From a virus (Duplodnaviria > Heunggongvirae > Uroviricota > Caudoviricetes): a DNA stretch of 64,000 nucleotides. The stretch spans positions 80,253 to 144,252 of the IMG/VR virus record IMGVR_UViG_3300013121_000049; one strand, written 5' to 3'. Both the position numbers and the translations under genes were made by a program. Below, in pieces: positions 7,972-63,426 of the stretch (positions within the stretch are counted from its first letter, which is position 1; every line of letters starts with the position of its first letter). A model generated the notes under the pieces. It searched no databases and had not been told where the DNA came from. It saw only the letters and a list, made by a program, of their open reading frames with translations.

Positions 7972-7980
7972 TGGTATAAG
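7972..7980 (+). promoter_or_regulatory. promoter-like motif TGGTATAAG (extended -10-like)
   Basis: Exact copy of the recurring motif, 32 nt upstream of the ATG at 8012. Confidence 0.5.
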
Positions 7981-8011
7981 ATAGTACTCAACAAACAAAG
8001 AGGTGGTTAGC

Positions 8012-8224
8012 ATGAACCCTTACCTGAAAGAGATGGAGAAAGTCGCTGGTGTCCTGCAGAACGCGGGCGCTGCAATCAAGAAGCAGCTTACGACTCCCCT
8101 CAAGGTACAAGGGGGCCGCATCGTCAAGCAGATGCACCCCGACGACGAAAAGGCGTTGGCAAAAGCCATCAAGGATAAGATGGCAAATGGTGAAGTAAAG
8201 CACGTCACCGGAATTTTTGATTAA
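8012..8224 (+). CDS. small hypothetical protein (70 aa, Lys-rich)
   Basis: ATG at 8012 preceded by an AAAGAGGTGG ribosome-binding site. It sits between a promoter motif and a terminator. Confidence 0.55.
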   Translation: MNPYLKEMEKVAGVLQNAGAAIKKQLTTPLKVQGGRIVKQMHPDDEKALAKAIKDKMANGEVKHVTGIFD

Positions 8225-8253
8225 AAAGAAAAGGGCCTCGCGCCCTTTTCTTT
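8222..8253. terminator. bidirectional intrinsic terminator (A-tract, AGGGC-ctcgc-GCCCT stem-loop, T-tract)
   Basis: Hairpin at 8232-8246 flanked by AAAAAGAAAA and TTTTCTTT. It lies at the convergent junction with the minus-strand gene 8262..9314. The downstream flank CTTTTCTTTAGCCGRRATTACC is shared with the terminator at 26096-26127. Confidence 0.7.
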
Positions 8254-8261
8254 AGCCGAAA

Positions 8262-9314
8262 TTACCTCCGAAACCCTTTGCTCCCCAGCAACTGGAGCAC
8301 GGACGAAGACAGGTTTGTCCCGATCTTGCTGGCCAGGGAAGGTTTGCTCAGCTCAACGACTTGTCGGGCAACATCCGGGGCCATTCGGCGTGCTTTGCTC
8401 AGTAGGTTGGAGAAGTTTTTCGGGCGGGACTCCGCCCACGGAATACCTAGCCCTTTTGTAACAAAATTGGCCTCCCCTGCCGATTGGCGCCAAGAATTGG
8501 TCAAAGACAAGGGGTGTGTCCCGCTATTCTCCATGGAGTATCGGTCTGCGTCATAAAATATGCCCAGATCTCCTTTTTGCGTGGATTTCACCACTTGTCT
8601 GGCGGACACGGCAGGCGGCACGATGTGGTCATAGGGGTCATGCCCCCTGTCCAGGCTCTCTCTTGCCAGTACTGCAGGGCTGACGTGAGAGTATACCCTG
8701 GGCACCTTATCCAACCCGACGTTAGGACCGTGTTTTTGGAGCAACCGCCTGCTCTCGTCATACTCGTAGAACTCATGACGATGGGCCTTGACATCCTGAA
8801 GCCGGCGAAGGTCCTCTGCCACATTACCGGAGGGACCCAGTAGCGGGGGGACTCGAATGTCTGCGTGCATTACCCCCGTTCCGGGGTGATATGACGTTAC
8901 TTTTGTCTCGTATTGAGCCTTGGGGTGATAGGACTCGTTGATGTTTGTCTTCGGGATAACATTGATAGGGCGAGCTTCATAGGTACGAAGATCCGGGGTA
9001 ACTCCGCCTCTCCGCAGGATTGCATCCGCCATTGCTCGCGTACCTTTGGTTTGCCCCTCAAGGTATTGCGCGGGAGACCGGAGAACCCCTCTGTCTTGCA
9101 ATTCTTGCAGCCGTGACATCGGATATTTTTCCCGGTTATCCGCGATGTGACGGGACAACCTGTTGGCCTCCTTGACCAATGCCTGCCCCTCCTTTGCCCG
9201 CCGGGCCACGCTGAGCGCAATAGCCACTGCCTGCTTCTGCGGCTTACCCGCCGCCATTTCTGTGCGAATATTCTGGGAGATGGCTTCTCGGGAATCGGAG
9301 GGGATCAGCGGCAT
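8262..9314 (-). CDS. hypothetical virion-associated protein (350 aa)
   Basis: Last gene of the long minus-strand structural operon. It ends KGFRR, with its stop next to the terminator. Confidence 0.6.
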   Translation of the reverse strand: MPLIPSDSREAISQNIRTEMAAGKPQKQAVAIALSVARRAKEGQALVKEANRLSRHIADNREKYPMSRLQELQDRGVLRSPAQYLEGQTKGTRAMADAILRRGGVTPDLRTYEARPINVIPKTNINESYHPKAQYETKVTSYHPGTGVMHADIRVPPLLGPSGNVAEDLRRLQDVKAHRHEFYEYDESRRLLQKHGPNVGLDKVPRVYSHVSPAVLARESLDRGHDPYDHIVPPAVSARQVVKSTQKGDLGIFYDADRYSMENSGTHPLSLTNSWRQSAGEANFVTKGLGIPWAESRPKNFSNLLSKARRMAPDVARQVVELSKPSLASKIGTNLSSSVLQLLGSKGFRR

Positions 9315-9477
9315 GACAGCGGTCCTCGTTTACTTGGCGGTTGGCTCTGCTATCGCCTGCTGGGCAGCTCCCATCGTCGAGGAGCCCGGCTGGCGGCGCA
9401 TTGCAGCATTTCTGTTCTTCGTCCTGACCGGGCCTTCCCTGGCGCTGGTCTTGCTATGGGTGGTCCTGCGGTCCTGA
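9313..9477 (+). CDS. possible small membrane protein (54 aa, two predicted transmembrane helices: MTAVLVYLAVGSAIACWAAPIVEEPGWRRIAAFLFFVLTGPSLALVLLWVVLRS)
   Basis: It fills, to the nucleotide, the only large (163 nt) gap in the minus-strand operon. A GGAGGGG motif lies 7-13 nt upstream. Its ATG at 9313-9315 shares a CATG with the minus-strand ATG at 9312-9314. Confidence 0.35.
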   Translation: MTAVLVYLAVGSAIACWAAPIVEEPGWRRIAAFLFFVLTGPSLALVLLWVVLRS

Positions 9478-10746
9478 TCAGACGTGATGCCACTTACGGG
9501 CGTTCAGCGCAAACTGGGCCATGTGACGGAGGTGAGCGTTTTCCGTAGTAGCCAAGACGTGACGCAGGGATTCCTCGGAAATGCGCTCGCCTTGCGGGAC
9601 GCCCATGGCGGCATGGAGGTCGCCCCTGTGCGCGGGGTTAACGGGTTGGAAGTCGGCGGAAGCCTGCTTGCTGATCAGCGGCATACGGTCAAACCGCGCC
9701 TGCGCCCGCGGCGTTCCCGACGCGCCCAGTACAGCGCCCAGCGCGGCTGCTGCGGGGACAGCGTATTTCAACCGAACCCCGGGAATCATGCTCAGGCCTA
9801 CCCCCGTAATACCTCCGGCAAGGGCTCCTGTTGTCGACCGACCCAGCATGGTGGGGCGGTGTACTTCGCTAGGTTGCAGCCACCCTTCCCGGATACCCTG
9901 GTCGATCCGGTGATCCCGGTATACCTGCAGCCCTACGCCCGCAGCCGCTCCACCGAGAGACCCCGCTGCCGCCCATGCAGGGCTGGCGCCGCCTCCCAGC
10001 CAACTGCCCAGCATGCCGCCCCAGATCGCTCCGGAAACTTTGTCAGTATCCCCGGGGTAGACATACTTGACCTGAGGGCGAGAGTCCTCCGCCGACTTGG
10101 TTAGAAATTGCCGAGCCAGCGACAGGGAAGATTGCTTAAAAATACCTGTGTACATGGGATTAAGGCTCCCCGTAGATGGATGGAACGGGAGACTATCTGC
10201 CGCGAGTATTTCTCCCAGGTCTGCCGAAGATGATTTGGCAGTGGCCAAGAGATACTGATCATACTTATGGCGAAGGCTATTCGGAACAGAGTCTTTGTGA
10301 TGAAAAGCCTCCTGGAACTTATCATGGATGCTTCCCTCTCTAAGCCTGGAGGTAAGGTCGCTCTCCAGCTCCGGATACCTCGAATATGCCCCCGCTTGAA
10401 GCGCTGCTTTTCTGGAAGAAATATCGGAAAAATGAGCCTGCATGGCCCGCCAGTCCTCTGGGGTTGGCGAAGCTGCGTGCGTAATCACCGGAGTAGGGCC
10501 GTTCATAAAATTTTTTAAGGGCTCCCGAATAGAGGGAGGGACTTCCCCTATGTCCTTGCGCAAGGCGTCAATCGTACCTGTCGCGTGAGCCAACCCGCCC
10601 CGCAAAGCTCTCCTTCGAAGACTGACCGCAAGCGCCCCTCCCCCCAGCAACGCTCCGCCGGCCAACGCCAAGCCGGGCAGGTTTACAGGCTGGCCATGCT
10701 TGCGCGTGGCTTCCGGCGGAGTATTACGAGAGGACAGGACGCTCAT
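9478..10746 (-). CDS. hypothetical Gly-rich protein (422 aa), possibly an internal virion protein
   Basis: Complete ORF with Gly/Ala-rich hydrophobic stretches. Its start is 2 nt from the upstream stop. Confidence 0.6.
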   Translation of the reverse strand: MSVLSSRNTPPEATRKHGQPVNLPGLALAGGALLGGGALAVSLRRRALRGGLAHATGTIDALRKDIGEVPPSIREPLKNFMNGPTPVITHAASPTPEDWRAMQAHFSDISSRKAALQAGAYSRYPELESDLTSRLREGSIHDKFQEAFHHKDSVPNSLRHKYDQYLLATAKSSSADLGEILAADSLPFHPSTGSLNPMYTGIFKQSSLSLARQFLTKSAEDSRPQVKYVYPGDTDKVSGAIWGGMLGSWLGGGASPAWAAAGSLGGAAAGVGLQVYRDHRIDQGIREGWLQPSEVHRPTMLGRSTTGALAGGITGVGLSMIPGVRLKYAVPAAAALGAVLGASGTPRAQARFDRMPLISKQASADFQPVNPAHRGDLHAAMGVPQGERISEESLRHVLATTENAHLRHMAQFALNARKWHHV

Positions 10747-10747
10747 G

Positions 10748-11263
10748 TCAGGCCGCCTTCACGATGTAATCGGTGTCGTTGAACTGGAAGCTGTTGGCGG
10801 TGAGCGCCATGCCCAGAACCTGGTGAATGGATCCGGTGCCTTGAGCACTGATCGGGGTAGCCGTCGCACCGCCCGGCGTGGTCGCCGACAGGTAGTAACG
10901 GGTGTCCGGGGTCAGGCCGGTCAGCGCGGTGTTCACGCCGTCAAAATATACCATGACGCCGGTCGCATTGGCGGCAGCCGATTGCAGGACGAAGCCTTCG
11001 GCGTAGTGGCCGCCGGCGGAAGCCACTGCGTTGGCAATCTTGCCATCACTGCGGATGTAGACGAAAGCGCCAGCCGCCAAGTTTTCGAAAGCCGTGCCCG
11101 TATAGGTGTCCGGGCCGATGCCGACCGGCATGAAGGACAGATCGAGACGACCGTTGGCGTCAAGGGCGGGGATGGCGCCGGCGCTGGAGATACCGGCGCT
11201 GGCAGTGATCGCCACGACTTCGGAGGTCTTGCCGTTGACGAGGGCGAGATAGGTAGTAGCCAT
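10748..11263 (-). CDS. hypothetical structural protein (171 aa), Ala/Gly/Thr-rich
   Basis: ORF in the structural operon. Confidence 0.55.
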   Translation of the reverse strand: MATTYLALVNGKTSEVVAITASAGISSAGAIPALDANGRLDLSFMPVGIGPDTYTGTAFENLAAGAFVYIRSDGKIANAVASAGGHYAEGFVLQSAAANATGVMVYFDGVNTALTGLTPDTRYYLSATTPGGATATPISAQGTGSIHQVLGMALTANSFQFNDTDYIVKAA

Positions 11264-11267
11264 GATG

Positions 11268-11909
11268 TTACCTCGGAGCGTTGAAGATGATCGGGGGGGA
11301 GATGTCGACCTTTATTTTAGTCGGTTCCATCGCTACCCCAACCTGCTGCTGAAACAAAGCACCCGGCTGGTTAGGATCTTGGGTCAACCCCCCGTTCCAG
11401 CCGAGAAAAACAGGCTGCCCGGGAGTCCAGGCCCAGTTCTGATTAACCAGTTCGCCTTCCTGAATGACCTTGATCATGGTCCCCATCAAAGCCGAGTTAT
11501 TGGCCACGCCCAGGATGGCGTCCGCGCTGGCCATATCCCGGTTGCTGCCATGCACTGCCGCCCCCACGGAATTCGCCACCACGACGTAGCCGGCGATAAC
11601 CGATCCGCCGGCCGGCCGGTCAATGCTGACCTGGGAACGATCGATCACGGCGACCGTATGCCCAAGGTCCAGCGGCGTTTTCTCTGTGACGATCACGCCG
11701 TTGGTTGCCTGGTAGTACCGGGCGCCCTGAGTGAAGACGTAGAAGGTCAGCACGCCCGCAGGGTCTGTTGTCGTGGGGTTGGCAATCTGCTGGCCGTGGA
11801 TGTCAAACAAGTCGGACAGCGTGACGCCATCCGCCTCAAAGATGGTCGTGGGCGCCGATCGCAACACGGCGCCGTTCTTGTAGCGGATCGTCTGCTGGAT
11901 GCGATACAT
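11268..11909 (-). CDS. tail-fibre or adhesin-like protein (213 aa)
   Basis: Composition and position match a fibre or collar-type protein. It is tightly coupled to its neighbours. Confidence 0.55.
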   Translation of the reverse strand: MYRIQQTIRYKNGAVLRSAPTTIFEADGVTLSDLFDIHGQQIANPTTTDPAGVLTFYVFTQGARYYQATNGVIVTEKTPLDLGHTVAVIDRSQVSIDRPAGGSVIAGYVVVANSVGAAVHGSNRDMASADAILGVANNSALMGTMIKVIQEGELVNQNWAWTPGQPVFLGWNGGLTQDPNQPGALFQQQVGVAMEPTKIKVDISPPIIFNAPR

Positions 11910-11912
11910 GGG

Positions 11913-14575: not shown

Positions 14576-14635
14576 GGGCGGAAATACCTGTAAAAAAGAG
14601 GGGGAGCTCCTCCATTTTAGACGAAGCTCCTCGGT

Positions 14636-14909: not shown

Positions 14910-16814
14910 TTAACCCCCGTTATGATGAGCTTCGTAGGTGCACTGCCAGTAGCAAGTATCGCCACCTGCAGCAGTTGTGTTTGCCATGCTGATGTCCAAC
15001 AAGCCGCTGGACACAGCAGGAGTAAAAGTAATCGTCTGCGTGTCAGGATTCCAGTCAGTACCTACAGTCTGCGTATCCAATGTCGCTGTCGTGCCATCCC
15101 AACGCACACAAACGCGGCGTTTTCCATACCACACCGCACCTGCGCTGGTTGTCATTGTCAGCAAGCATTCAAAAATACTAACCGCGTGATGTCCTGTGGG
15201 TTTCGTCAGATACGCAGGAAGTTTGGTATTGCTCGAAGTGACAAGCGAAGACGCAGCAGTACCAGTGGACGACCCTTTGAGCGAGCCGACGTAGCCTGTA
15301 ACCTTCGACGCGCTGTACGAAACACTGCTATTTCCAAACAGTGCAGCATCTTCCGGGCATAGCCCAGAAGAATTTATGAGTTTTCCAGACAATACAGCCT
15401 GATTACTTTTGTTCGCCTTATTTGATGTACCAGCCAGAATTGAAGATGTTGTGCCACCGGGATTTACATTCCCATTCGCCGTATTTATGGAGGGCAGTGA
15501 CTTATACGACACAAGATCTATGTTGTAGTCCGGCAGAGAAAGAGTCCTGTTAGCAGTGGCGTAGTTTGTGATTGCTGTGTACGCTCCTGGAACTCCAAGA
15601 TAAGGATTTGCCAGCACCCTGGCGAACGGAATTAAATACTGCGTATTTGGCGTCAGGTTAACCAAGTTCCATAGATTACCCGATGGGACATACGTATACA
15701 GGTATGTAAACCTTTCGCAACCGGGCACATTGCTACCAGTTATCTGCACAGTGGGTGCGACACTGTACAAGTCCGGCCCCATCACATTTTTAGTGCCTCC
15801 GTTCAGTGTTATGATCCCAACTCCGCTGCCGATACGAGAGTCTTTGTTTAGTGGAGTATCCTTAATAATCACCCAGTCGCCATCTGCTGGAGAGGCTGGC
15901 AAGTTGATAGTATACGAGGAAGTATCAGCGCTGCATTGATATACGCGCCCCGCCACAAGATTCAGCCCTGATGACGTAACAATACCTGCGGGGTCATACA
16001 ACGGCACATTAACTGTGCTGCCTCCGTAACCAAGAATTGCAAGATTGCCGCCGGACACTGTATACGTTAGCGGAATACTGCCAAGATTCACATCTTGGTT
16101 AGGCATAGTGATAGTACGTGCCGTTGCAGTGGAGATATTACCAAGACTCCACGCAATTTTCTTTGTGTTATCCGTACCATCAACTACCCGCCACACGTTT
16201 GATTTCGGCAAATCGCTGTACGCTTTAATTGCCTTCTGGCTGGGAACGCGTGTGTCACTGTTTGATGAAAGCGTCGTATCCGTATCGACGTTCGCCGCGT
16301 TGAACGGCGTGTAGCCGAGGTTCCCCTCGATCTGCGCCCAGTTGGCGGCCGTCTGTCCCGGCGCATCAGTCAGGGCCCGGATGGTGTCGCCGACATTCAC
16401 CGCGACGCCTCCCAACGTACCGGCGACGCTGATGTACCAGAGGTCGCCCTTCATGATGGCGCCGGCCGCGCCGCTGCCTCCGGAGGTCGGGTAGGTGTTC
16501 CCGCTGGCATTGTAGTTACCGCGATCCTTGACGACGCCGGAGATGGCCAGGCCAACCGTGGTTTGGACAAACGCCGTCGTGGATATCCGCGTCGAGTTGT
16601 CTCCCGTGGTCGGTGTCGGCGCCGTTGGGCTTCCTGTCAACGCCAGGTTATCCACGGACGCCACGTCAGAGAATTCAGAACCGCTTGGCGTTGACCCTTT
16701 GGGGATGCGCGTGGTCACCCGCTTCATCACGCCGCCATAGAGAACCAGCTCGTTGACCTCGTAGCCTTCCCCGGGCTGGTAAACCGTGATGAACCCGATC
16801 TTGGTCGTCTTCAT
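14910..16814 (-). CDS. tail-fibre-like protein (634 aa)
   Basis: Gly/Thr/Ser/Asn-rich ORF with a GAGGA ribosome-binding site. Confidence 0.65.
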   Translation of the reverse strand: MKTTKIGFITVYQPGEGYEVNELVLYGGVMKRVTTRIPKGSTPSGSEFSDVASVDNLALTGSPTAPTPTTGDNSTRISTTAFVQTTVGLAISGVVKDRGNYNASGNTYPTSGGSGAAGAIMKGDLWYISVAGTLGGVAVNVGDTIRALTDAPGQTAANWAQIEGNLGYTPFNAANVDTDTTLSSNSDTRVPSQKAIKAYSDLPKSNVWRVVDGTDNTKKIAWSLGNISTATARTITMPNQDVNLGSIPLTYTVSGGNLAILGYGGSTVNVPLYDPAGIVTSSGLNLVAGRVYQCSADTSSYTINLPASPADGDWVIIKDTPLNKDSRIGSGVGIITLNGGTKNVMGPDLYSVAPTVQITGSNVPGCERFTYLYTYVPSGNLWNLVNLTPNTQYLIPFARVLANPYLGVPGAYTAITNYATANRTLSLPDYNIDLVSYKSLPSINTANGNVNPGGTTSSILAGTSNKANKSNQAVLSGKLINSSGLCPEDAALFGNSSVSYSASKVTGYVGSLKGSSTGTAASSLVTSSNTKLPAYLTKPTGHHAVSIFECLLTMTTSAGAVWYGKRRVCVRWDGTTATLDTQTVGTDWNPDTQTITFTPAVSSGLLDISMANTTAAGGDTCYWQCTYEAHHNGG

Positions 16815-22992: not shown

Positions 22993-23001
22993 TGGTATAA
23001 G
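22993..23001 (+). promoter_or_regulatory. plus-strand copy of TGGTATAAG in a 28 nt gap between two minus-strand genes
   Basis: Exact motif, but it points into the antisense of gene 23004..23510. It may be coincidental or an antisense promoter. Confidence 0.2.
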
Positions 23002-23003
23002 GA

Positions 23004-23510
23004 TCAGGTCAGCGGAACCACGCGCCAACCGGTCTGACCCCCAACGAAGGTCACCAGGCAGGGGACGCTGATGTCCAGGTAGTAGGGCGCTGCGTCGCCC
23101 TGAATCGGCGCACTCGCCATCAGCTGGACGTTGTTGGTCTCCCAAGTGCCGATCAGGTTACCCGCCTGTCCCCGCGAAAACATCGCCGGGGTGATCAGGT
23201 GGGACGACCCGGACTTGTCGATTGCGTTGGGAAACAGCGTCACCACGATGCCGACCTGCGAGGTATCCGCCGAGATGTTCTCGCCTTCGGCCAGCACCGT
23301 ATCGGAGTTCTTGACCGGGAAGTCGCCGCGAATATCCACCATGGCGTTAGGGGAGATCGGCACGATCTTGCCTTGCCCCTGCGCCGTCTGTACGCTGGGA
23401 TCCTGATACTGCGCGTCGGTCAACGTGACCTTCTGGAGGTAGTTCAGGAACATCGCTCCGCCGAAGAGGCGGATGCCCTCCGTAACGACGCACTGGATGG
23501 ATTGGCTCAT
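23004..23510 (-). CDS. hypothetical structural protein (168 aa); first gene of the minus-strand structural operon
   Basis: ORF with a GGAGG ribosome-binding site. Confidence 0.6.
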   Translation of the reverse strand: MSQSIQCVVTEGIRLFGGAMFLNYLQKVTLTDAQYQDPSVQTAQGQGKIVPISPNAMVDIRGDFPVKNSDTVLAEGENISADTSQVGIVVTLFPNAIDKSGSSHLITPAMFSRGQAGNLIGTWETNNVQLMASAPIQGDAAPYYLDISVPCLVTFVGGQTGWRVVPLT

Positions 23511-23560
23511 GGGTACCTCCGGGCTACCTTTCCATTTTACAGCAGCGAAGAGGGGAATCC

Positions 23561-23818
23561 ATGTTCACCGACGCTGATATGCAGTTCATCCGCCGCCTGA
23601 AGGCCGGACAAATCGCCTGGGACGACCTCCCCGTCATCCTACAAGACACGTTGTTCGAATTCTTTCAGCCAAACATGCCCTACACTATTCAGAAAGCCAG
23701 GGACGACGATCCCGTCAACTGGATGACCAGACGCCTGCACTGGATTACGCACGATGGCCCGTCTCATGTCCTCCCGCCAGTTCAAGCACTGGCTGAATAC
23801 CTCCGTCCCTCACCGTAG
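23561..23818 (+). CDS. hypothetical protein (85 aa)
   Basis: ORF with a GAGGGG ribosome-binding site. It is the first gene of the plus-strand island. Confidence 0.5.
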   Translation: MFTDADMQFIRRLKAGQIAWDDLPVILQDTLFEFFQPNMPYTIQKARDDDPVNWMTRRLHWITHDGPSHVLPPVQALAEYLRPSP

Positions 23819-25332: not shown

Positions 25333-25341
25333 TGGTATAAG
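25333..25341 (+). promoter_or_regulatory. promoter-like motif TGGTATAAG
   Basis: Lies 112 nt upstream of the small ORF at 25453. The leader contains the hairpin GGAGCctggtGCTCC. Confidence 0.45.
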
Positions 25342-26135: not shown

Positions 26136-29100
26136 TTACCCGAGAGGTCGGACCCCATTGCTGACATCCGCCGGCGCGCTCATGCCCGCCTGGCTCTGGT
26201 ACTCGAAGGTCGTCTTCGAAAGGAAGTCCTCGACGCCCTGCGGGTAGAACTCGCTGGGCGGCAGGATGTACGGCGCGCTCTTCGGGTCGCCCTCGGCGTG
26301 GTTGTGGCTGACCGACTCGCCCGAAGCCTGCTTGTGGTGACTGCCGATGACGACCTCCTGGTTCTCGTGGACCTTGCCGGCCTTGAGCGCCGCCACGGCT
26401 TCCGCCTCTGTGGCGAAGTGCACGGTCTTCTGCGTCTCGTCCTTGCTGGTCAGATGTACGCTGCCCAGGATGGCCTCGTGGCCGGGCGCAAACATCGAGT
26501 AGCCGTAGCCCTTGCGCACGTCGTTGATGTGGTGCATTGGCAGCAGCTTGGCCTTGGCCTCGGCGATGGCTTCCGGCGTCATCGGCAAGTGCATGGTCAT
26601 GGCGTCGCCGTCGAAGTCCGCGCCGAACGCCGGCAAGTGCAGCGGATTCAGGCCGATCGTGTTTTCCTTGGTCGGCACCGGATAGATGGCCAGCTCGTTA
26701 GTCCGCAGCAGGGTCGGCGCGCGGTTCAGCAGCAGCGGGATGTCCTTGATGCAGCGGTTGAACGCATAGGTCGCCAGGTTGTCGCGCTTGGTGTAGGAAT
26801 CCAACGCCTCGGGCATCGACATGCCCTGCTTCGCCAGGAAACGCAGGATGTGGTACTTGTAGAGCACCCACAGCTGGTCCACCGGGATGCGGGCCTCGTT
26901 GAAGCCGACATCCGGGGCAGCATAGATCGTCGCCCGTCCCGAGAAGTTCTGCTTGCGCGCCAGCAACCGGTCATGAAACACCCCGGTCTTCGGCCCGCCT
27001 TCCCCGGCGATCTGCTTGATGAACCCCTTCAGCGGCTTCTTGGCGCCGATGTTGTCGCCCAAACCCATGATGGCCGCTGCGCCCTGATAGAGGTCCTTGC
27101 GCATGGGCACCAGGGCATCCGGCGTCGAATCCGCGAGGTTCTTCTTCAGGGTCTTGCTGACCAAGATGTGATCGTTGTACAGGTTGTTGACGTCCGCGAA
27201 GTGCAGACTGCCGCCGCCCTGATCCATGAAGGGGCGCATGACCGGGGGCAGCACGGGCATGTGCTTGATGACGTAGGCGTCCGCCGGGTTGGAGAATCCG
27301 CTCTTCTGCAGGCCGCGCAGGTACTTGGCGCGCTTCACCTCGTCATCTCGCGCCGATACCGACTTCAGGTTGACGGCGTTGTGCACGGAGGTCTTCAGCG
27401 CCTCGTCGACATCGATGTTGGCCAGCAACTCCTTGAACGCCTCGCCGCCCACCTTGATCTTGTCGTCGTTGTAGGCTTCGTCGGCGTCCGCCTTCTTGGT
27501 CATGCCGACACCGGTCTTGCCGATGTGAATATCCCGGACCTTGGACTGGTTCAGCGTGTCGTAGAGGCCGTAGTGTCCCGGCGCAATCTTCTGCACGCCG
27601 TAAGAGCCGTCAGTCAGCCGATCGAACTCGTCCGCGCTCAGCTTGAGCACCGACTTCACGGGCATCTCGAAGGTAGGGTTCACGATGGGCTCGGCCAACG
27701 TGTAGTGCGACCACTTGGTGCCCTCCGGGCCGCCGGTAATGATGGGGTCGAACATGCCGCCTTTCTCAGGCTGCAGGGTGCGCGCCAACAGGCGGCCCTC
27801 GTTGACCTCGCCGCCGCTCATCTCCAGGATCTTGTGGTCGGTCAGCGGGGCCAGCGTCACTTTGTCGTTGGCCGTGCGCACATCGATGCCGGCGCCCTTC
27901 AGGTAGCCCAAGAACTTGTCGGTGGCAAAGGTCGTCTTCGGCTTGGGAAGCGGCTCGCCATTCTGGAAGGCCTTCCAGAACTCCTCGTTCTTCTCGGCCT
28001 TGATGGTCGACATCTCCTGCAGGTTCTTGCGGGCGTTGGACCCCAGCAAGGCCAGGAATTCCATGTAGGCCGTCCGCTTGGATCCCTCTTCCCCGCCCTT
28101 GGACGGCTGGCGCCAGGAGTCATAGCCACCCTCGACGTTGCGGGCGCTGTAATTGGAGTCCGTGGTCTTGTAGGTCTTGACCACGTAATGCGGGCCGCCG
28201 AAGACCTTGGGCAACACCTTGCCGGAGACCGGATCCACCAGCACGTCATGCTGCTTGAGCCCGTGCGCCTTCAGCTCGTCCTTGATCTTGCGGACAGAGT
28301 CCCCGGCGTTCTCATAGTTGTGGACCACATACTGCTTGCCCGTCTTCTGGGCAATGCGACCGGCCGCCGTCTCCAGGACCGATCCCAGGTTGATCCGGGA
28401 GGTGACCGAAGCCGGGTTGAAGATGGCGTCGACGGGTTTCCCCGTCTCCTGGTTATAGGGCATCTGCTCGTCCGGGACGATCTTGGAGACCACGCCCTTG
28501 TTGCCATGAAAGCCGGTCAGCTTGTCGCCTACCTCCAGGTGCTTCACCGAGCGCGTCAGGATGCGAACCTCCTTGCCATCGGTGTGGGCCTCGATGACCT
28601 CGCCGGGCTCCTCGTGCGTCCAGTACTCCACGACTGCCAGGTACGGGGAAACCAGCTGCTTGCTGATGCGGTGGTACATCAGGTCGGTCGTGCTCATCGT
28701 GCGCGGCTTGAGCACCGCCCAGATGGGATCGCCGTAGCGCAGGGTCTGGCCTTTCTGGATGAAGCCGCGACTGTCCAGCTTGGCCAGCTGGTCGGACTTC
28801 AGCAGGGACGGGAACGTCTTGCGGAACAGCGCCCGATCGGTCTTCATGTCCGTCGTCAGGGACAGGTCGTACTTGTAGGCGTGGTGGCTGGACAGCTTCT
28901 CGGCCGCGCCTTGGCTGACCACGATGCCGTCTTCATGGTTGAAGCCGTGGTACGGCATGAAAGCCACGTTCAGGTTGCGGCCCAGCGCCAGTTCCCCGCC
29001 GCGCGTGTAGTTGCTGTCGTACAGGGACTGCCCCTTCTCGACGCGATCGCCCACCTTGACCAGCGGGGCCTCATCATCGCGGAACCCCTTCTGGTTGTAT

Positions 29101-30905
29101 GGCAGGTTGACCACGCGGGCGACCTTGGCCGTCTTCCCGTCATCCCCGCGGATCTCCATCCCGGTGTCGGTGATCTTGCTCACCGTGCCGCTCACCGGGC
29201 TGATCGTGGTCATGATCTTCCCATAGACCTTGGTGAACGGGACCTCCCTGCCGTTCCGGTCACGGGTGGCCGTGGTTACCAGCGGCGCCTCGCGGTCCTT
29301 CAGGGAGAGCGCCTGGACGATGGCCTTGCCCGCCATGGTCAGACGACCCGGATGGTCGGCGTTCATGAACGGCACCAGGTTGGTGGTGACCGTGTACATG
29401 TCCGTCGGCTTCTCCACCCAGTACTGGACCTTGGACTCCGGGACGTTCTTCAGGACGCCGTGATCCTGGGCCTGCACCAAGCCGTTCTTCTTGCCGATCG
29501 TGAACCCGATGCAAGCGTTCATGATCTGGGACGCCGACAGGTAGACCGAGCGCCCCTTGGTGTCCTTGAACCGGCCGTAAAGGTTGCCCTTGGCGTCGCG
29601 CGCCGAGTTGATGGCAAAGCGCAAGTCGACGCCCACCGTGTCGGCTTCCGGCGTCCGGCTGGGATCCAGGATGGTCAGGTGGGACGGGTCAATGTTGCGC
29701 GTCCGGACGTTGTTGGCTTTCTGCAGATCGATGCCGCCTTCCCCCTCGCCCAGAACGGTGACCTTGGCCACGTTCTCCAGGGACTCGATGGGGTTGGTTT
29801 CCGACGGCACGATCGACAGCGTGGACTTGGTCAGGAAGTTCTGCATGACCTTGTTGTAGGGCTTGGAGACCACGACCTTGCGGATCTTCGGCGTCTCCTT
29901 GGACAAGACGGCGCGGTCCAGCCCCCACTTGATCTTGCGGCTGGCGTCGCTGACGTTCTCGTGTTCGCGGCCCTGTTCAAACCGCCGGGCAATCAGGTCC
30001 GGGTAGCTCACGACCCGCTTGAACTGCAGGGAGTCGCGGTTGTCTTCCTCGCGCTCGCCCTTGTGGATGGCGATGATGTTGGCGGCGATACGCAGCAGGG
30101 CATCGCCATCCAGATGCCCAAAGGACTTGCCCAGGGTGACCTTGGTGCCGTCTTCATCCAGGGTACGCTTCTCCAGCCCGACCTTGATCCACTTGATCTT
30201 CTCGGCTTGCGCGGGGTCCGGGTTGGCCTTGCGCTGCTCGTACGGAGCCACCTTGCGATACAGGCGGTTGGCGATGCCGTCGCTATCCCCGGACTCCATC
30301 AGATCCTTGTCCCAGATGGCCGTGGGAATGTAGGCGGACGCTTTCTGCCGGTCGATGCCGAAGACGTGGCTGAGCACCCAGACCAGCGGCACGTTGATGT
30401 CGCCGCTGCTCAGGATCAACGTCTGCTTGCGCGGGTCCAGGGACACTTCCAGGGAGCCGCCGCCGGAGTTGATCTGGGCCATGACAGCGCCGTTGCTGCG
30501 CCGACGATGGTAGACGCCCTCCTTGAGCTGCAGGAGGTGGGAGATGACGTAGTTGTTGCCCTTGTAGACGACCGTGTGCTTGTCCGTCAGGTGAAAGCAG
30601 TCGGCCAGGGCGTAGTTCTTCTCTTCGTCGACCGTCTTCCCCGTCTGCTTGTCGATGATGCGCAGGGTGCCGCGCACCGGGAACGTCAGGGACTTCGATT
30701 CCAGGATCGCCTTCTTTTCGTCTTCCTTGTCGAACGTCTTGCGATCGATCGTGATGTCCGAGACCTCGATACGGTAGCGGGCGTTCTCGATGGGGAACTG
30801 CTTGCGCACGCCATCCACGATGGCCTGGCAAACATCGTTCAGCGTGCTGTCCGGAGACGAGATCATGTGCTTCAGCGGCTTGCCGTCGAGACTGGTCAGG
30901 CTCAT
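26136..30905 (-). CDS. DNA-directed RNA polymerase: a complete beta-like subunit fused to the N-terminal half of beta-prime (through the NADFDGD catalytic region), 1589 aa
   Basis: Beta-subunit blocks: [12 protein letters not shown] (compare GYNFEDSILVSE), [25 protein letters not shown] (compare [25 protein letters not shown]), and LGEGEGGID...TPEADTVGV. Beta-prime blocks: [16 protein letters not shown] and [25 protein letters not shown]. The start is at the ATG that forms an ATGA overlap with the upstream stop; a GTG at 30914 is an alternative. Confidence 0.92.
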   Translation of the reverse strand: [1589 protein letters not shown]

Positions 30906-31330
30906 AGTTGCCACCCCTCACCCGGTTCCTCGTCTTTCTTCGGCGTCTCGAAGACCACGCCCTCGTAGGGCGCATCCTTCGGCTCCAGATACGTCAGGAC
31001 GACGATCATCTCGCCCTCCTTGTTGAAGGATTCCTTGCGGTCCACCAGGTAGATCCGCGTGGTCTCCGAGTGGATACAGGCGTCCAGCAGGCTCTCCAGC
31101 ATCAGTTCCTGCTCGGCAAACCCGGACAGCAGGAACCGCTTGACCCGGAGCTTGTAGTCGGCCAGTTTGAACCCGGCCCGGCCGGGAGCCTTGTCCTTTA
31201 CCGCGGCTTCCTCGTCAAGGTTGCGCAGGGTGACCCCCGGCATGGCTGCCGAATAGTCCTGCAGACCGACTCCCGCGTTCTCCGGAAGGTTGGGGGCATT
31301 GACCCCCGGCGTCTTGTCACGCGGCGGCAT
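30902..31330 (-). CDS. hypothetical acidic protein (142 aa), translationally coupled to the RNA polymerase gene
   Basis: ORF 30902..31381, trimmed to the Met after the GGAGGA ribosome-binding site. Its stop overlaps the RNA polymerase start. Confidence 0.5.
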   Translation of the reverse strand: MPPRDKTPGVNAPNLPENAGVGLQDYSAAMPGVTLRNLDEEAAVKDKAPGRAGFKLADYKLRVKRFLLSGFAEQELMLESLLDACIHSETTRIYLVDRKESFNKEGEMIVVLTYLEPKDAPYEGVVFETPKKDEEPGEGWQL

Positions 31331-33071: not shown

Positions 33072-33120
33072 TCTGCTTTGCTCCGGGGAATCCAGTCTAT
33101 TTTACGACGAGGAGGTGGCC

Positions 33121-35397: not shown

Positions 35398-35441
35398 AGT
35401 CGGATCTCCGGAGGCGTCTTCTGATTTTACGCCTAAAAAGC

Positions 35442-35451
35442 CGGGTATAAG
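35442..35451 (+). promoter_or_regulatory. promoter-like motif CGGGTATAAG
   Basis: Lies in the divergent region, 147 nt upstream of the ATG at 35598. The leader is purine-rich. Confidence 0.4.
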
Positions 35452-40681: not shown

Positions 40682-40690
40682 TGGTATAAG
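40682..40690 (+). promoter_or_regulatory. promoter-like motif TGGTATAAG
   Basis: Lies 43 nt upstream of the ATG at 40733. A short GGGGAC-acttc-GTCCC hairpin follows. Confidence 0.45.
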
Positions 40691-41247: not shown

Positions 41248-41271
41248 AGCCCGCCATGTGCGGGCTTTTTT
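41248..41271 (+). terminator. intrinsic terminator (AGCCCGC-catgt-GCGGGCT followed by TTTTT)
   Basis: A 7 bp GC stem followed by a T-tract. Confidence 0.7.
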
Positions 41272-41282: not shown

Positions 41283-41291
41283 GGGTATAAG
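41283..41291 (+). promoter_or_regulatory. promoter-like motif GGGTATAAG
   Basis: Lies directly after the terminator. It heads a 545 nt non-coding stretch before the ATG at 41834. Confidence 0.45.
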
Positions 41292-41812
41292 AAGCTAGAC
41301 ACCGAACTTTACCCCAGGCGGGGTACGGCGTGTCATGGCAAGGCCGGGCTCGGCACGGTCCGGCGGGGCTTGCAGAGGTTTGGCGAGGTGCGGCGTGGCA
41401 AGGACTTCTCACTGGGCTCGGCGAGTTCAGTGAGAAGTCCTTGAGGAAGGGTTTGGCTTGATCTGGTCAGGTTGGGCTGGGCGGGGTGTTGCTTGGAAAG
41501 GCAAGCCTGGGCTCGGCGAGGCAAGGCTAGGAGAGGCAAGGCGAGCCGGGGAATGGCAAAGCTTGGCAAGGCGTGGCAAGGCCCGGCATGGCGGGGCTCG
41601 GATAGGCACGGCATGGCTGGGTTAGGTACGGATTGGCATGGCGAGGGTTTCTCGCTGGGCTCGACGAGTTCAGCGAGAAACCCTTGGTGACTAGCACTAA
41701 TGATTATCTTCAATGGCGAGGTTCGGTCAGGTTTGGACAGGACGGGCTGGGTAAGGTAAGGCATGGCAAGGGCTTCGCCCGGAGCGGGAAACCACTCCGG
41801 GTTTTTCTTTTT
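41292..41812 (+). ncRNA. candidate structured non-coding RNA or long leader: GGCAAGGC/GGGCTCGGC-type short repeats, two covarying hairpins, and a 3' intrinsic terminator
   Basis: Hairpin 1, 41403-41439: GACTTCTCACTG-ggctcggcgagtt-CAGTGAGAAGTC. Hairpin 2, 41645-41683: GGGTTTCTCGCTG-ggctcgacgagtt-CAGCGAGAAACCC. The loops are near-identical and the stems differ but stay complementary. The terminator CCCGGAG...CTCCGGG plus TTTTTCTTTTT lies at 41778-41812. Confidence 0.4.
41778..41812 (+). terminator. intrinsic terminator or attenuator immediately upstream of the ribosome-binding site for gene 41834
   Basis: A 7 bp stem (CCCGGAG / CTCCGGG) followed by a T-tract. Confidence 0.6.
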
Positions 41813-43086: not shown

Positions 43087-43147
43087 CTGGCCCCCGGAGC
43101 CCGAGGATAACGAGGATGACTCGTTAGACCTCGATGTCGTGGGCTGA
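43070..43147 (+). CDS. small acidic peptide (25 aa) MQAHINWPPEPEDNEDDSLDLDVVG
   Basis: Paralogue of the 41179 peptide. It overlaps the end of gene 42451..43086 in another frame. It is also antisense to the last 24 nt of the sigma factor gene. A terminator follows. Confidence 0.3.
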   Translation: MQAHINWPPEPEDNEDDSLDLDVVG

Positions 43148-44032
43148 CTCAACGACGGCCTCCTCCGGGAGGCCTTTTTTTACATAGAATTGCCGGATCT
43201 TGCGCATGGCCGCAGTCTGCAGACGACGGACCTCGGACACCGTGCACCCCATATCCTGAGACAGCTGACTGATACTCTGCTTGGCCGCGCCGGCCAGCTC
43301 GAACATCGCCGAAATGACGCGCCACTCCCGAGAGGAAAGCATGGCCTGCAGGCGCCCGCACAAGAGGTCGTCATCCATGCTCTGGATGAGGTCATCTGAG
43401 AAGTCGGCCACCGTGAGGGGGGCCAGGGTAATGTCTGATCGCGCAACGGCGTCATCAATGTCGGCAGAGGAGTGGCGAGAGGAGTGTGAAGACAGGATGC
43501 CGCGGAGGATGTCATCGATGTAGACGGTGACGTACAGGGTCTTTCGCAAGTTGGCGATGATCTCCGTACTGGTGGATGGCGCGCACCGCTGCTGAAGCTC
43601 GACATCCGTGATCCTGGGTTCCTTGGCCAGGATGTCGCGTATCTTCACGGCAAGCTGCTGCTGCCACACGGGGAGCTTGACCAGCCTGAGCTTCTGCTGC
43701 GTCCGCCACTGGCACTGGTTTACCCACCACCCGGCGTAGGTCAGGAACTTGTGCCCGCGCTTGTAGTCGAACCGCGACAGGGCGATACACAGACCTTCGT
43801 TCCCCGCCGCCACCAGTTCTTCGAACTCATAGGCACCCAGTTTACGAGCACGCAGCTTGGCCTGCTTGGCGACAAACATGATGCACGACCGGACGATCTT
43901 GTCGCGGGCCGCATCCTTTTTCCAGCGCGGCGCTTCCGGATCCTCCAGTGTGGCGAACAGAGACTGCTCCTCCTCCCGGCTCAAGGGCTTTTGTTTTGAA
44001 ACCAGGGTGAAATAGGAGGATATTGGATCCAC
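43124..44032 (-). CDS. sigma-70 family RNA polymerase sigma factor (302 aa)
   Basis: Region 2: IMFVAKQAKLRARKLGAYEFEELVAAGNEGLCIALSRFDYKRGHKFLTYAGWWVNQCQWRT, which has the FSTYATWWIRQAI-type pattern. Region 4: SSREWRVISAMFELAGAAKQSISQLSQDMGCTVSEVRRLQTAAMRKIR. The start is a GTG with a weak ribosome-binding site, so it is uncertain. Confidence 0.85.
   Translation of the reverse strand: MDPISSYFTLVSKQKPLSREEEQSLFATLEDPEAPRWKKDAARDKIVRSCIMFVAKQAKLRARKLGAYEFEELVAAGNEGLCIALSRFDYKRGHKFLTYAGWWVNQCQWRTQQKLRLVKLPVWQQQLAVKIRDILAKEPRITDVELQQRCAPSTSTEIIANLRKTLYVTVYIDDILRGILSSHSSRHSSADIDDAVARSDITLAPLTVADFSDDLIQSMDDDLLCGRLQAMLSSREWRVISAMFELAGAAKQSISQLSQDMGCTVSEVRRLQTAAMRKIRQFYVKKGLPEEAVVESAHDIEV
43157..43181 (+). 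terminator. intrinsic terminator (GGCCTCC-tccg-GGAGGCC followed by TTTTTTT), located inside the 3' coding region of the convergent sigma gene
   Basis: A 7 bp stem followed by a T7 tract. On the opposite strand the same bases encode ...KKGLPEEAVV of the sigma factor. Confidence 0.65.
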
Positions 44033-44096
44033 GTTTCTAATTGCCGTGTTCGCCGATCCGATCTAGCATATAGAGGCGATAACCTGGAGTAAATCC

Positions 44097-44312
44097 ATGC
44101 GCCTCAAGATAGAAAAACACCCGACCGAAAATAAGGGTCGAATCACCGTTGTTGCCGACAGCGACGACGAAAAAGTCAAACTGGACCTGCTGTTCCAGGC
44201 CCTGATGACCACCGCCCGCAAACAGGGCGAAATGACCTCCACCAATTCGTTCTCCGTACTGTTCGAGACCTCTCCCGAATGGAAGAACCCGGAAGGCGGG
44301 AGGCGGCCATGA
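44097..44312 (+). CDS. hypothetical protein (71 aa)
   Basis: ORF with a GGAG ribosome-binding site. Confidence 0.45.
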   Translation: MRLKIEKHPTENKGRITVVADSDDEKVKLDLLFQALMTTARKQGEMTSTNSFSVLFETSPEWKNPEGGRRP

Positions 44313-44725
44313 CAAACCTGCTTGCCCTCCTGGGGTTGCTGAGCGACGACATGCCGCCTGAGGCCAAGATCGCCATCGTGGCGCATGAAGTCAACCGCCT
44401 CTACTGCAAGGCGCAGCACATGGCCATACCCCCTGCCTGGATGGATCTTTCCGACAACCTGAAGAACAGCGCCATCATGGGCGTCCGCCTTCGCTTGGAG
44501 GACGGCGGCAAAGCCGATGCCGAGTTCTTTCACGGCGAGTGGATGAAAGCCAGGTTGGCGGACGGCTGGACCCTGGGGGACACCGTGGACCACCAAGCCA
44601 AGACGCACCCCTGCCTGCGTCCTTACAGCGAACTGCCGGAAGCCCAGCGTCGCAAGGATCTCATTTTTGACGCCGCCGTTCGCCTCGGCGCCCTGATTTT
44701 TCAGCCGGCGCAATCGCCGGTATAA
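44309..44725 (+). CDS. RyR (ryanodine-receptor) domain protein (138 aa)
   Basis: The sequence HEVNRLYCKAQ...FFHGEWMKARLADGWTLGDTVDHQAKTHPCLRPYSELPEAQRRKDL matches the phage RyR domain signature. The start is trimmed to the ATG that forms an ATGA overlap. Confidence 0.6.
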   Translation: MTNLLALLGLLSDDMPPEAKIAIVAHEVNRLYCKAQHMAIPPAWMDLSDNLKNSAIMGVRLRLEDGGKADAEFFHGEWMKARLADGWTLGDTVDHQAKTHPCLRPYSELPEAQRRKDLIFDAAVRLGALIFQPAQSPV

Positions 44726-44726
44726 G
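44717..44726 (+). promoter_or_regulatory. promoter-like motif CCGGTATAAG, overlapping the stop codon of the upstream gene
   Basis: Lies 17 nt upstream of the ATG at 44743. Confidence 0.35.
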
Positions 44727-46390: not shown

Positions 46391-46399
46391 TGGTATAAG
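46391..46399 (+). promoter_or_regulatory. promoter-like motif TGGTATAAG
   Basis: Lies 19 nt upstream of the ATG at 46418. Confidence 0.45.
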
Positions 46400-52236: not shown

Positions 52237-52620
52237 CCGTTTCGGCTACCTCCGGCTACCTAACTGCTACTTCGCGTTTATCTTCAAGTAGCCGGGCAAA
52301 CCGTTGCGCCCCAACGGTTTCAGCTCTCCGGCTACCTCGGCTACCTCGGCTACCAAAAAAGTATGACGTCATATATACGTACATGTGCGCGTACGGTATT
52401 GACCGCCTAGTCACAGAAAAGTGTTGACATTCTCGTTTTCACTTGATCTAGGATTGTAGGACAATATATATCTCTTATATATATATAGTCTTTTTCAGAA
52501 AGTAGGTAGTAGAGGTAGCCCAAACGCTGAATCCCTTGCGCCCCAAAGATTTGCTCGGCTACCAAAAGGTAAAAACGAAGTAGCAATTAGGTAGCCGAGG
52601 TAGCCCGGCCTCGGGTATAA
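52237..52620. repeat. putative replication origin: GGCTACC iterons (direct and inverted, at least ten copies) flanking an AT-rich core at 52462-52486, plus palindromes TGACGTCA and TAGCCGtttCGGCTA
   Basis: CGGCTACCTCCGGCTACC at 52246. CCGGCTACCTCGGCTACCTCGGCTACC at 52327. GGTAGTAGAGGTAGCC at 52503. GGTAGCCGAGGTAGCC at 52589. Core AATATATATCTCTTATATATATATAG. A duplicated TTGCGCCCCAA. Lies immediately downstream of the primase-helicase gene. Confidence 0.55.
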
Positions 52621-52621
52621 G
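52613..52621 (+). promoter_or_regulatory. promoter-like motif GGGTATAAG
   Basis: Lies 20 nt upstream of the ATG at 52641, which has an AGGAGG ribosome-binding site. Confidence 0.45.
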
Positions 52622-52640
52622 AACGACAGGAGGCATCCTT

Positions 52641-59415: not shown

Positions 59416-59473
59416 TTTTGCTAGCCTTTCTTGCGGGAGGTTTTGATGATTTTACCCCATAGGAGATGTCCGT

Positions 59474-61132: not shown

Positions 61133-61147
61133 CCACGGAGATCCTCA

Positions 61148-62050: not shown

Positions 62051-62053
62051 CCC

Positions 62054-62485
62054 ATGCGCCCCGGGTCTCCCCGGGGCACGGAGTCTGCCGTGAGAACCCG
62101 TACTTTCCACGAAGACCTGTTCTTCGAGCACATGAAGCCCTACCGCCCGGAAGGCGTCGAGAAGAACGCGCTGAATATCTGCCTGGACTCCAACCCCATG
62201 CTGGAGACCTACGGCGCAGACTATGAGTTTGTCCTGAAGGCCGATCCGAACTACCTGTGGACACTGCTGGAGGCAGACGGCGCTCTGTACATCACGTCCG
62301 GTCGGCACTTCGTCAACCGGATCGGCTACTACATCACCGAACTGCCTCACCATGGTCTACACTTGGAATTCCGCATGGGTCGCGACGAGCCCGCTCTGAC
62401 GGCGGTAGGGTTGAACGCCCGGAAAAAGACGTTGGACCGGATGATCGAGACCTACCGCAAGAACCACGCCGGAGAGATGTCATGA
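62054..62485 (+). CDS. hypothetical protein (143 aa)
   Basis: ORF located 3 nt after the upstream stop. Confidence 0.5.
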   Translation: MRPGSPRGTESAVRTRTFHEDLFFEHMKPYRPEGVEKNALNICLDSNPMLETYGADYEFVLKADPNYLWTLLEADGALYITSGRHFVNRIGYYITELPHHGLHLEFRMGRDEPALTAVGLNARKKTLDRMIETYRKNHAGEMS

Positions 62486-63093
62486 GCATGAGCGACAATA
62501 AAGCATCACCCTTCGCTGTCTTGACCACTGGGCCGAATACCCCGCTGACTTCCATCGTGGAACGGGCGATGGTTGATTGCGTGAAACCACCGTCTCCGTT
62601 CTACGTTAACGCCCGTACAGGAGAACCGTGGGAGGATGACGAGATTCATGCGTCCCTGATGCAGCAAGACGCCTCTCTTCAAGCTATGGCTGATCGGATC
62701 GGTGTACTCAAAGACCTCTTGCGCACCCCGCTGACCGCCGGCCGCACTTTCATGGACCAATTGCCTGCCACAAACGAGGTGCGGATAAAGACACCAATGT
62801 TAGGCAAACGGATCGACTCCACTCCTTGCCCGGTAATCTCAATGGACGGTCTGACCCTTGCCAAGGTCCGGGCAATCGTGGCGGCGGCCGCCGGCCTGCT
62901 CACGGACGCCGACGACACCCCGGTGGAAGCCGACTCCCCGACGCTGCGCAACATCCTCCGCATGCAGCGCGAACTGGAGGACCTCCGTACGCCGAAACAG
63001 GCGGTCGCCGTTCAGGCTGCAGGCCCGGGCAAAGCGCTCTCCACTGATTACTTCCTGGCCTGTCGTCAGGACGGTAGGCATCCGCTGGCGTAA
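62482..63093 (+). CDS. hypothetical protein (203 aa)
   Basis: ORF 62257..63093, trimmed to the ATG at 62482 that forms an ATGA overlap. Confidence 0.5.
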   Translation: MSMSDNKASPFAVLTTGPNTPLTSIVERAMVDCVKPPSPFYVNARTGEPWEDDEIHASLMQQDASLQAMADRIGVLKDLLRTPLTAGRTFMDQLPATNEVRIKTPMLGKRIDSTPCPVISMDGLTLAKVRAIVAAAAGLLTDADDTPVEADSPTLRNILRMQRELEDLRTPKQAVAVQAAGPGKALSTDYFLACRQDGRHPLA

Positions 63094-63124
63094 ACTCCAT
63101 GGACAATGTCTTTGGGAGACGGCC

Positions 63125-63394
63125 ATGACCCCGCGCGAGCAGGTAGACCAGTACGCCATTCTCAATGCAGTCTTTGAGCTGGAGACTTACGCCAAGCACT
63201 TGGACTGCTCCACGGAGCACGACTGGCTGAGGTTACCTACCCAGGCTCCCTTCGTCCTGCGGGAGCGTCTGTCCACCGCCAAGGATGTGCTGGTCTTTTT
63301 CGGCATGTTGCATGAAGCCGGAGACCAGTTCTACATCGACAAGGAACACCCGCTCTACGATCACCGGAAGCTCTACGCGCCTTCCCCCGTCTAG
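63125..63394 (+). CDS. hypothetical protein (89 aa)
   Basis: ORF 62858..63394, trimmed to the ATG at 63125 after a GGGAGACGGCC ribosome-binding site. Confidence 0.5.
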   Translation: MTPREQVDQYAILNAVFELETYAKHLDCSTEHDWLRLPTQAPFVLRERLSTAKDVLVFFGMLHEAGDQFYIDKEHPLYDHRKLYAPSPV

Positions 63395-63417
63395 GTTTTA
63401 CGGAAAACCGCAGGCAT

Positions 63418-63426
63418 GGTATAAAT
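63418..63426 (+). promoter_or_regulatory. promoter-like motif TGGTATAAA
   Basis: Lies 31 nt upstream of the ATG at 63457. It is preceded by the GGTTTTacggAAAACC hairpin. Confidence 0.4.

Follow-up and report, generated by a model that had tools for sequence, protein, structure and literature searches.

Phage-specific promoter classes are known, and several of them resemble in part the element described here, GGTATAAG, which recurs in a 64,000-nucleotide (nt) stretch of the uncultivated virus record IMGVR_UViG_3300013121_000049 (Caudoviricetes; positions 80,253 to 144,252, hereafter the window). Extended -10 promoters recognized by the bacterial sigma70 holoenzyme, and the distinct class of them used by Thermus phage P23-45, share with it a G at position -14, a TATAA core, a weak or dispensable -35 element and a start site that would lie 7 nt further on (PMC3950348). 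Phage P23-45 re-tunes the host holoenzyme, whereas the phage represented by the window encodes its own sigma factor and RNA polymerase. The early promoters of phages phiKZ and AR9 are alike in that a short, conserved, AT-rich element is located near -10 in front of non-structural operons (PMC7598289). However, the polymerases of those phages are highly divergent, split and free of sigma factors, and no sigma factor was found in the Group 1 jumbo phages (PMC7824862), whereas the enzyme encoded here is bacterial-like and fused, and sigma genes are present.

Two further comparisons are instructive. According to two published accounts, SPO1 gp28 and gp33/34 and phiEco32 gp36 are phage proteins of the sigma70 family that give rise to a non-host consensus and to temporal classes of promoters (PMC8948821, PMC13401047). 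These factors redirect the host core enzyme, whereas a phage core is encoded here as well. The consensus sequences of the SPO1 and phiEco32 sigma factors are not known to be related to GGTATAAG. The late promoters of phage T4 (TATAAATA; read by gp55 together with gp33 and the sliding clamp) are another AT-rich phage promoter that consists of a -10 element only. Nevertheless, the sequence of GGTATAAG differs and the element is found in front of genes for helicases, a nuclease, a primase and a DNA polymerase. Because this class appears to drive replication and other non-structural genes, T4 late promoters, which had been offered as the parallel in an initial annotation of the window, are the wrong analogue. 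The GGTATAAG consensus itself seems undescribed. Our survey of the literature found no description of GGTATAAG, of transcription in this phage family, of TATAAG promoters or of phage systems that combine a polymerase with a sigma factor, and promoters are unmentioned in the paper on the closest isolate, Salmonella phage Arash (PMC10585845).

We consider it probable that the Arash-like large myoviruses have a promoter class of their own with GGTATAAG as its core, and that this class is read by a phage-encoded sigma factor, probably in association with the phage polymerase. There are nine exact copies of the motif in the window and they are found exclusively on the plus strand. Only 0.33 copies are expected, and none of 100 dinucleotide shuffles reaches nine. 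The longer form YGGTATAAG occurs six times (0.16 expected), and GGTATAAG ranks first when all 8-mers are compared with a third-order Markov model (9 observed versus 0.18 expected; z = 20.8). The recurrent motif that the initial annotation reported upstream of plus-strand units is real, and it stands out clearly from shuffled sequence. Matches with a single mismatch are not enriched overall in the window (21 versus 16.4 expected), and therefore we count only the exact copies and two one-off variants with matching context, GGCATAAG at 7333 and GGTATAAA at 63418, both of which had already been named. The resulting eleven sites are designated below by the first nucleotide of the 8-mer and are listed in Table 1. 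Most of the positions given earlier were correct and two were off by one (35442 should read 35443 and 44717 should read 44718).

All eleven sites are confined to non-coding DNA, which makes up 5.1% of the window, in agreement with the intergenic location first proposed, and site 44719 shares bases with the stop codon of the open reading frame (ORF) in front of it. These assignments are made relative to a gene map derived from a codon-usage model, which was used because the raw ORF list at 60% GC is full of shadow ORFs. Nine sites are followed at short range by a plus-strand start codon (Table 1). The copy that had been described as antisense is confirmed at 22994, where it is located in the gap between two minus-strand genes, and the next plus-strand gene begins 559 nt further on. 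This copy may be the true promoter of the plus-strand block starting at 23561, since the 50-nt divergent gap in front of that block (23511-23560) has no space for GGTATAAG and holds only a motif of the other strand that is discussed below. Its transcript would then cross the structural gene antisense for 560 nt. The remaining site, 41284, is followed by 542 nt that carry no ORF. The suggestion that the sites often directly follow terminators was overstated, as a clear hairpin and T-run precedes only 41284 (terminator at 41248-41266).

The two strands carry different sets of genes. The window derives from an uncultivated relative of Arash, which is a myovirus of about 180 kilobases (kb), and the closest isolates are Arash itself (180.8 kb; polymerase 48.8% identical) and the Vibrio phages D69, D181 and D148 (46%). 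The minus strand carries genes for the tail sheath, virion proteins, tail-fibre-like proteins, RNA polymerase and sigma factor, and a gene for a 584-amino-acid protein at 31317-33071 that occupies the position of the Arash portal gene. The plus strand holds genes for replication and nucleotide metabolism, which specify two helicases (SNF2 and DinG-like), a PD-(D/E)XK nuclease, a dUTPase-like protein, a primase, a 3'-5' exonuclease, a family A DNA polymerase and a DHH phosphoesterase. The GGTATAAG class is predicted to drive the plus-strand units, with their genes for helicases, nuclease, primase and DNA polymerase, their small genes and a single non-coding repeat array, and the structural, polymerase and sigma genes on the other strand would be outside its reach.

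The same arrangement is found in relatives. In the Arash genome (assembled from five stretches; 53% GC) there are 30 copies of GGTATAAG on the non-structural strand and only one on the other, and the motif is the most over-represented 8-mer (30 versus 2.1 expected). A Shine-Dalgarno sequence and a start codon follow within 90 nt at 29 of these 30 sites, compared with 27% of random positions, and conservation extends somewhat downstream, in the form GGTATAAG-tAAaGTgTAaAc. A nearer relative from IMG/VR (polymerase 72% identical; 59% GC) is represented by two stretches, L002 and L058, which together hold eight distinct copies (seven GGTATAAG and one GGTATAAC) on the strand equivalent to the plus strand of the window. 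Among them are positional orthologues of 25334, 35444, 40683, 46392 and 52614. In pairwise comparison with this relative the flanking sequences are only about 50% identical and the motif forms an island of identity. In Vibrio phage D69 (45% GC) the non-structural strand carries the related form G(T>G,C)TATAAG, and its variant GTTATAAG occurs nine times (1.1 expected).

A wider sample consists of 49 metagenomic polymerase relatives (783 kb; 35-55% GC; L053, a duplicate locus, is not counted). Here the strand opposite the polymerase gene carries 167 copies of G-n-TATAAG where 51.5 are expected, and the polymerase strand carries 46 where 68.8 are expected, which is a pronounced strand bias (binomial p = 2.5e-17). 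The consensus tracks phage lineage rather than host, as it is retained in phages of Salmonella, of Vibrio and of uncultivated hosts over a range of 35-60% GC.

Pooling 222 sites, 158 of them metagenomic, gives a more detailed view of the element. Its core is a G, any base (mostly G) and TATAAG. Two bases past the core there is an A, and positions 6 and 7 after the hexamer are occupied by a T (75%) and a purine. This T/purine step matches the pyrimidine(-1)/purine(+1) step that is expected 7 nt past a -10 hexamer, which would place the start site at that purine. By this reading TATAAG would be the -10 hexamer (-12 to -7), and the invariant G two bases upstream would be the -14 G of an extended -10 element. 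The spacing of downstream signals is compatible with such a start, because in three sites (44719, 46392 and 52614) the Shine-Dalgarno sequence begins exactly 6 nt past the motif, so that transcription would have to begin within 7 nt for the mRNA to include it. Further upstream, a weak TT(c/a)AAT(a)(a) is located at -22 to -15 relative to the first G; T occupies -22 and -21 at 59-63% of the 158 metagenomic sites. This element is separated from the hexamer by an 18-nt spacer and is -35-like, although it is not TTGACA, and it may act as the -35 element. Examples can be seen in the window at 25334 (GTCAATAA), 7333 (TTCAATTT) and 40683 (TTCATTTT). The absence of any conserved -35 element, as originally described, must therefore be qualified, given that a weak one does exist in the pooled sites. 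A different upstream candidate, ATTTTA, was rejected as a -35 element because in divergent regions it is the TAAAAT motif of the other strand, and the true -35-like signal emerges only from the pooled sites.

The likeness to an extended -10 element holds for G(-14) and the TATAA core, but not for position -7. Among the GGTATAAG sites T(-12) and A(-11) are invariant, with a variant at 7332 (tGGCATAAG), and G(-14) is invariant as well. T(-15) is found at seven window sites out of 11 and at 72% of the metagenomic sites. At -7, ten of the 11 window sites have G, and of the 40 GGTATAAN sites on the Arash non-structural strand 30 have G and only two have T. Region 2 of sigma70 flips out and binds two bases, one of which is T(-7) (PMC7598289), and we infer that the invariant G(-7) separates this class from host sigma70 promoters.

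These details bear on the possibility that the sites are read by the host sigma70 holoenzyme as extended -10 promoters, with a phage factor perhaps disabling promoters that depend on a -35 element, in the manner of P23-45 gp39. Seven of the 11 window sites fit TGnTATAAt, the middle and late promoters of P23-45 are indeed extended -10 promoters served by the host enzyme (PMC3950348), and the polymerase genes of the phage lie behind a late-looking motif, so that infection might begin with the host enzyme. Nevertheless, this explanation is unlikely. Apart from the preference for G over T at -7, the first base of the 'TG' varies whereas the GG that follows it does not (the G at -13 is conserved, with T in its place in the D69 lineage), and the non-canonical hexamer persists in phages with such different hosts and base compositions. 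In addition, there is not a single TATAAT in the window, and matches to canonical sigma70 promoters in the window are not enriched (17 versus 19.6 +/- 3.7 in shuffles). Together, G(-7), a hexamer kept across unrelated hosts and unenriched sigma70 matches argue for a reader that is encoded by the phage.

Suitable machinery is present. The window encodes a sigma70-family factor whose alignment with RpoS and RpoD structures spans the whole protein, from region 1.2 to region 4.2 (E = 1.6e-18), and orthologues are found in L002, Arash (gp196) and D69. The protein retains the Y-x-x-W-W and Gln of regions 2.3/2.4. At the position that reads the extended -10 element, the window, Arash and D69 factors carry Gln, where sigma70 has E458 and sigmaS has K173, and the -35 recognition helix is unlike that of sigma70. 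A second sigma factor of a different type (gp10; regions 2 and 3 and an apparent region 4) is encoded inside the structural operon of Arash and D69. No gp10-type gene is found in the window, and no minimal gp55-like sigma was seen there. The reader of GGTATAAG would be one of these phage sigma factors, of the gp196 or the gp10 type, most probably in complex with the phage polymerase. The alignment of that enzyme's beta' N-terminal part with bacterial beta' runs through the clamp helices (E = 4e-43), where sigma region 2 docks, which makes a cognate phage core-sigma pair plausible. The initial annotation proposed a phage-specific promoter class read by the phage sigma factor and/or the phage polymerase. 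The phage-specific part is upheld by the conservation of strand and position, by G(-7) and by the presence of sigma and polymerase genes, while the pairing of the motif with these enzymes is something that we infer.

As an observation in its own right, the architecture of the polymerase is unusual, with a beta/beta' N-terminal fusion, a separate beta' C-terminal subunit and sigma genes alongside. Surveys of jumbo phages report that multisubunit polymerases and sigma factors are mutually exclusive (PMC7824862, PMC7598289).

Another possibility is that the phage polymerase recognizes the motif by itself, as do the virion polymerases of jumbo phages, which use an AT-rich element of about 10 nt centred at -10. 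Jumbo phages that encode polymerases do have early motifs of this kind that are visible to bioinformatics (PMC7598289), and the Arash polymerase is abundant in virion preparations (PMC10585845). However, the enzyme is nearer to the bacterial than to the phiKZ type, as judged by its Rpb2_6 match (7e-52) and by a beta' alignment that includes the sigma-binding clamp helices, and the family has two sigma genes. Moreover, the sites exhibit the full geometry of sigma-dependent promoters, with a -35 element, a spacer, an extended -10 element and a Y/R start. We therefore regard recognition that bypasses sigma as quite unlikely.

There is also a second promoter-like motif, (C/G)TAAAAT, and it is found in front of structural and polymerase genes at a distance of 23-90 nt from their start codons. 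The window holds seven TAAAAT copies on the minus strand, each of them preceded by C or G, and two on the plus strand. Five of the minus-strand copies are intergenic (14614, 23534, 33099, 35424 and 59449; 23-72 nt before start codons), and the other two fall within the 3' ends of genes, with 50 and 90 nt to the following start. The metagenomic loci carry 380 copies on the polymerase strand versus 165 on the other, and the motif also precedes structural genes in Arash. It is this motif, rather than GGTATAAG, that looks like a T4 late promoter. In the divergent regions of Arash the two motifs stand back-to-back, in the form CTTATACC-CTAAAATA, and the same is true of the core at 35443 in the window.

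Such arrangements are relevant to a further alternative, in which the motif is not a promoter but an RNA-level signal, such as a processing site or a 5' stabilizer, or a place where a regulator or a replication protein binds. An RNA element would also be consistent with strand specificity and with a location in front of start codons. On the other hand, the sites at 7333 and 35444 are located in divergent regions, where there is no upstream plus-strand transcription to process, and 41284 comes after an intrinsic terminator. The -10-like composition, the -35-like partner at a fixed distance, the Y/R step at +7 and the back-to-back placement with the motif of the other strand in Arash are likewise poorly explained, and we regard a non-promoter role as very improbable.

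Several observations weigh against the interpretation of GGTATAAG as a promoter class read by a phage sigma factor. The word promoter and the predicted position of +1 both derive from sequence logic. In the 11 sites of the window itself, the -35-like element is weak. Strand bias is missing in one metagenomic clade (L014, L016, L045 and L050; polymerase 44% identical), which may have another motif or another gene layout. In addition, the residues of the gp196-type sigma that face the extended -10 element (region 3.0) are identical in Arash, where the motif has GG, and in D69, where it has GT, and thus there is no signal of co-variation with the difference at -13. Finally, both polymerase subunits and sigma gp10 were among the proteins detected in Arash virions, but the same proteome contains many plainly non-structural enzymes (PMC10585845), and consequently packaging of the polymerase is not secure.

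Since the polymerase genes belong to the TAAAAT class, the enzyme is probably made late. Judging from this promoter class and from the Arash proteome, its late synthesis would be in line with a polymerase that is packaged into virions and used as the next infection begins. The sigma gene of the window is preceded by a different, sigma70-like sequence, TTTACT-N17-TATGCT (44065-44093, minus strand), which has counterparts in front of the sigma orthologues of L002, Arash and D69 and recurs nowhere else. This may be a third, single-use type of promoter. The only GGTATAAG on the structural strand of Arash (record 11588-11595, L003, plus strand) precedes gp9 by 4 nt and lies a short way upstream of the gene for sigma gp10. 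Perhaps there is a sigma cascade in which GGTATAAG also drives the second sigma gene within the structural operon. This speculation fits Arash but not D69, in which there is no copy of the motif within 3 kb of the gp10 homologue and only cGTATAAC is present 40 nt upstream.

A more encompassing proposal, which we regard as possible if somewhat short of probable, is that these phages have a self-contained transcription system. It would consist of a fused beta-beta' core with the phage's own full-length sigma70-family factor, a G(-7) that makes the promoters orthogonal to host sigma70, and a programme of two sigma factors and two motifs (GnTATAAG, then TAAAAT) that operates throughout the family. 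If true, these phages would be the first lineage with a multisubunit polymerase of their own that demonstrably uses canonical sigma factors. The motif also offers a ready-made guide to the transcription units of a widespread and almost unstudied family of phages of about 180 kb, which comprises the 49 metagenomic relatives and the isolates. The invariant G(-7) poses the structural question of how a pocket in sigma region 2 chooses G over T, and sigma factor and motif are a candidate orthogonal pair for synthetic biology. The question is directly testable, given that cultures of both Arash and its Salmonella host exist.

Table 1. Coordinates of the GGTATAAG sites, the (C/G)TAAAAT copies and the transcription genes in the window; distances run from the end of the motif to the next plus-strand start codon
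Feature	Position	Strand	Distance (nt)	Remarks
Exact GGTATAAG 8-mers (starts)	7973, 22994, 25334, 35444, 40683, 41284, 44719, 46392, 52614	+		
Variant core tGGCATAAG	7332..7340	+	30	Start codon 7371; divergent region shared with the beta' C-terminal gene
Core TGGTATAAG	7972..7980	+	31	Start codon 8012
Core TGGTATAAG	22993..23001	+		28-nt gap between two minus-strand structural genes; antisense through 23004-23510
Core TGGTATAAG	25333..25341	+	111	Before 25453/25646; -35-like GTCAATAA; orthologue L002 16957
Core gGGTATAAG	35443..35451	+	146	Before 35598; orthologue L002 6088 = L058 1358
Core TGGTATAAG	40682..40690	+	42	7 nt past helicase stop; before 40733; orthologue L002 1347 = L058 6099
Core gGGTATAAG	41283..41291	+		Just past intrinsic terminator 41248-41266; then (GGCNN)n array of about 450 nt, non-coding
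Core cGGTATAAG	44718..44726	+	16	Overlaps stop of 44309-44725; exactly 6 nt to GGAG of gene 44743
Core TGGTATAAG	46391..46399	+	18	6 nt to GGAG of gene 46418; orthologue GGTATAAC at L058 7901
Core gGGTATAAG	52613..52621	+	19	6 nt to AGGAGG of gene 52641; orthologue L058 13254
Variant core TGGTATAAA	63417..63425	+	31	Start codon 63457
(C/G)TAAAAT	59449-59454, 35424-35429, 33099-33104, 23534-23539, 14614-14619, 11314-11319, 5560-5565	-		
RNA polymerase large subunit, beta fused to N-terminal part of beta'	26136..30905	-		Pfam Rpb2_6 7e-52, Rpb1_1, Rpb1_2
RNA polymerase beta' C-terminal subunit	5444..7267	-		Pfam Rpb1_5 (Rpb1 domain 5)
Sigma70-family factor, Arash gp196 orthologue	43124..44032	-		Pfam Sigma70_r2 and r4; regions 1.2 to 4.2

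A long plus-strand ORF at 26298-30968 (1556 amino acids) was considered as a gene and rejected. It has a tblastn match of E = 1e-58, but it is an antisense shadow of the polymerase gene, and Pfam matches are obtained only with the minus-strand ORF. Since the shadow ORF matches the shadow frame of Arash at 1e-58, a strong tblastn match does not fix the coding strand. Other searches were uninformative. Megablast of 20 kb against phage records gave no match, scans of IMG/VR with the sigma factor, the DinG-like helicase or the beta' C-terminal subunit as single proteins retrieved no relatives, scans of bacterial and archaeal genomes gave no clue to the host, and neither tRNAs nor Rfam families were found in the window.

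Directly downstream of the 41284 site there is a (GGCNN)n array with a period of 5 nt, which spans about 450 nt (41300-41790, plus strand) and includes two near-perfect hairpins with arms of 20-22 nt (41399-41443 and 41644-41684) and a terminator-like hairpin at its end (41786-41807). The period of five rules out a coding function. No equivalent was found in the relatives compared. The array could be a promoter-driven non-coding RNA or an array of protein-binding sites.

The core at 52613 lies at the end of an AT-rich iteron region that follows the primase gene. This 404-nt non-coding gap (52237-52640) contains direct and inverted repeats of GGCTACC that flank an AT-rich core with (TA)n, and it looks like a replication origin. 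In Arash there are five near-identical plus-strand repeats of about 100 nt or more, at 26687, 66434, 100190, 138537 and 173311, each with the pattern ATATATAA...ATATATAA.

Three minus-strand ORFs of the window (8262-9314, 9478-10746 and 14910-16814, the last of which is tail-fibre-like) score poorly in the window's codon model, and GC content is also reduced at 14-16 kb, to 0.54. One explanation could be that host-range genes were exchanged recently.

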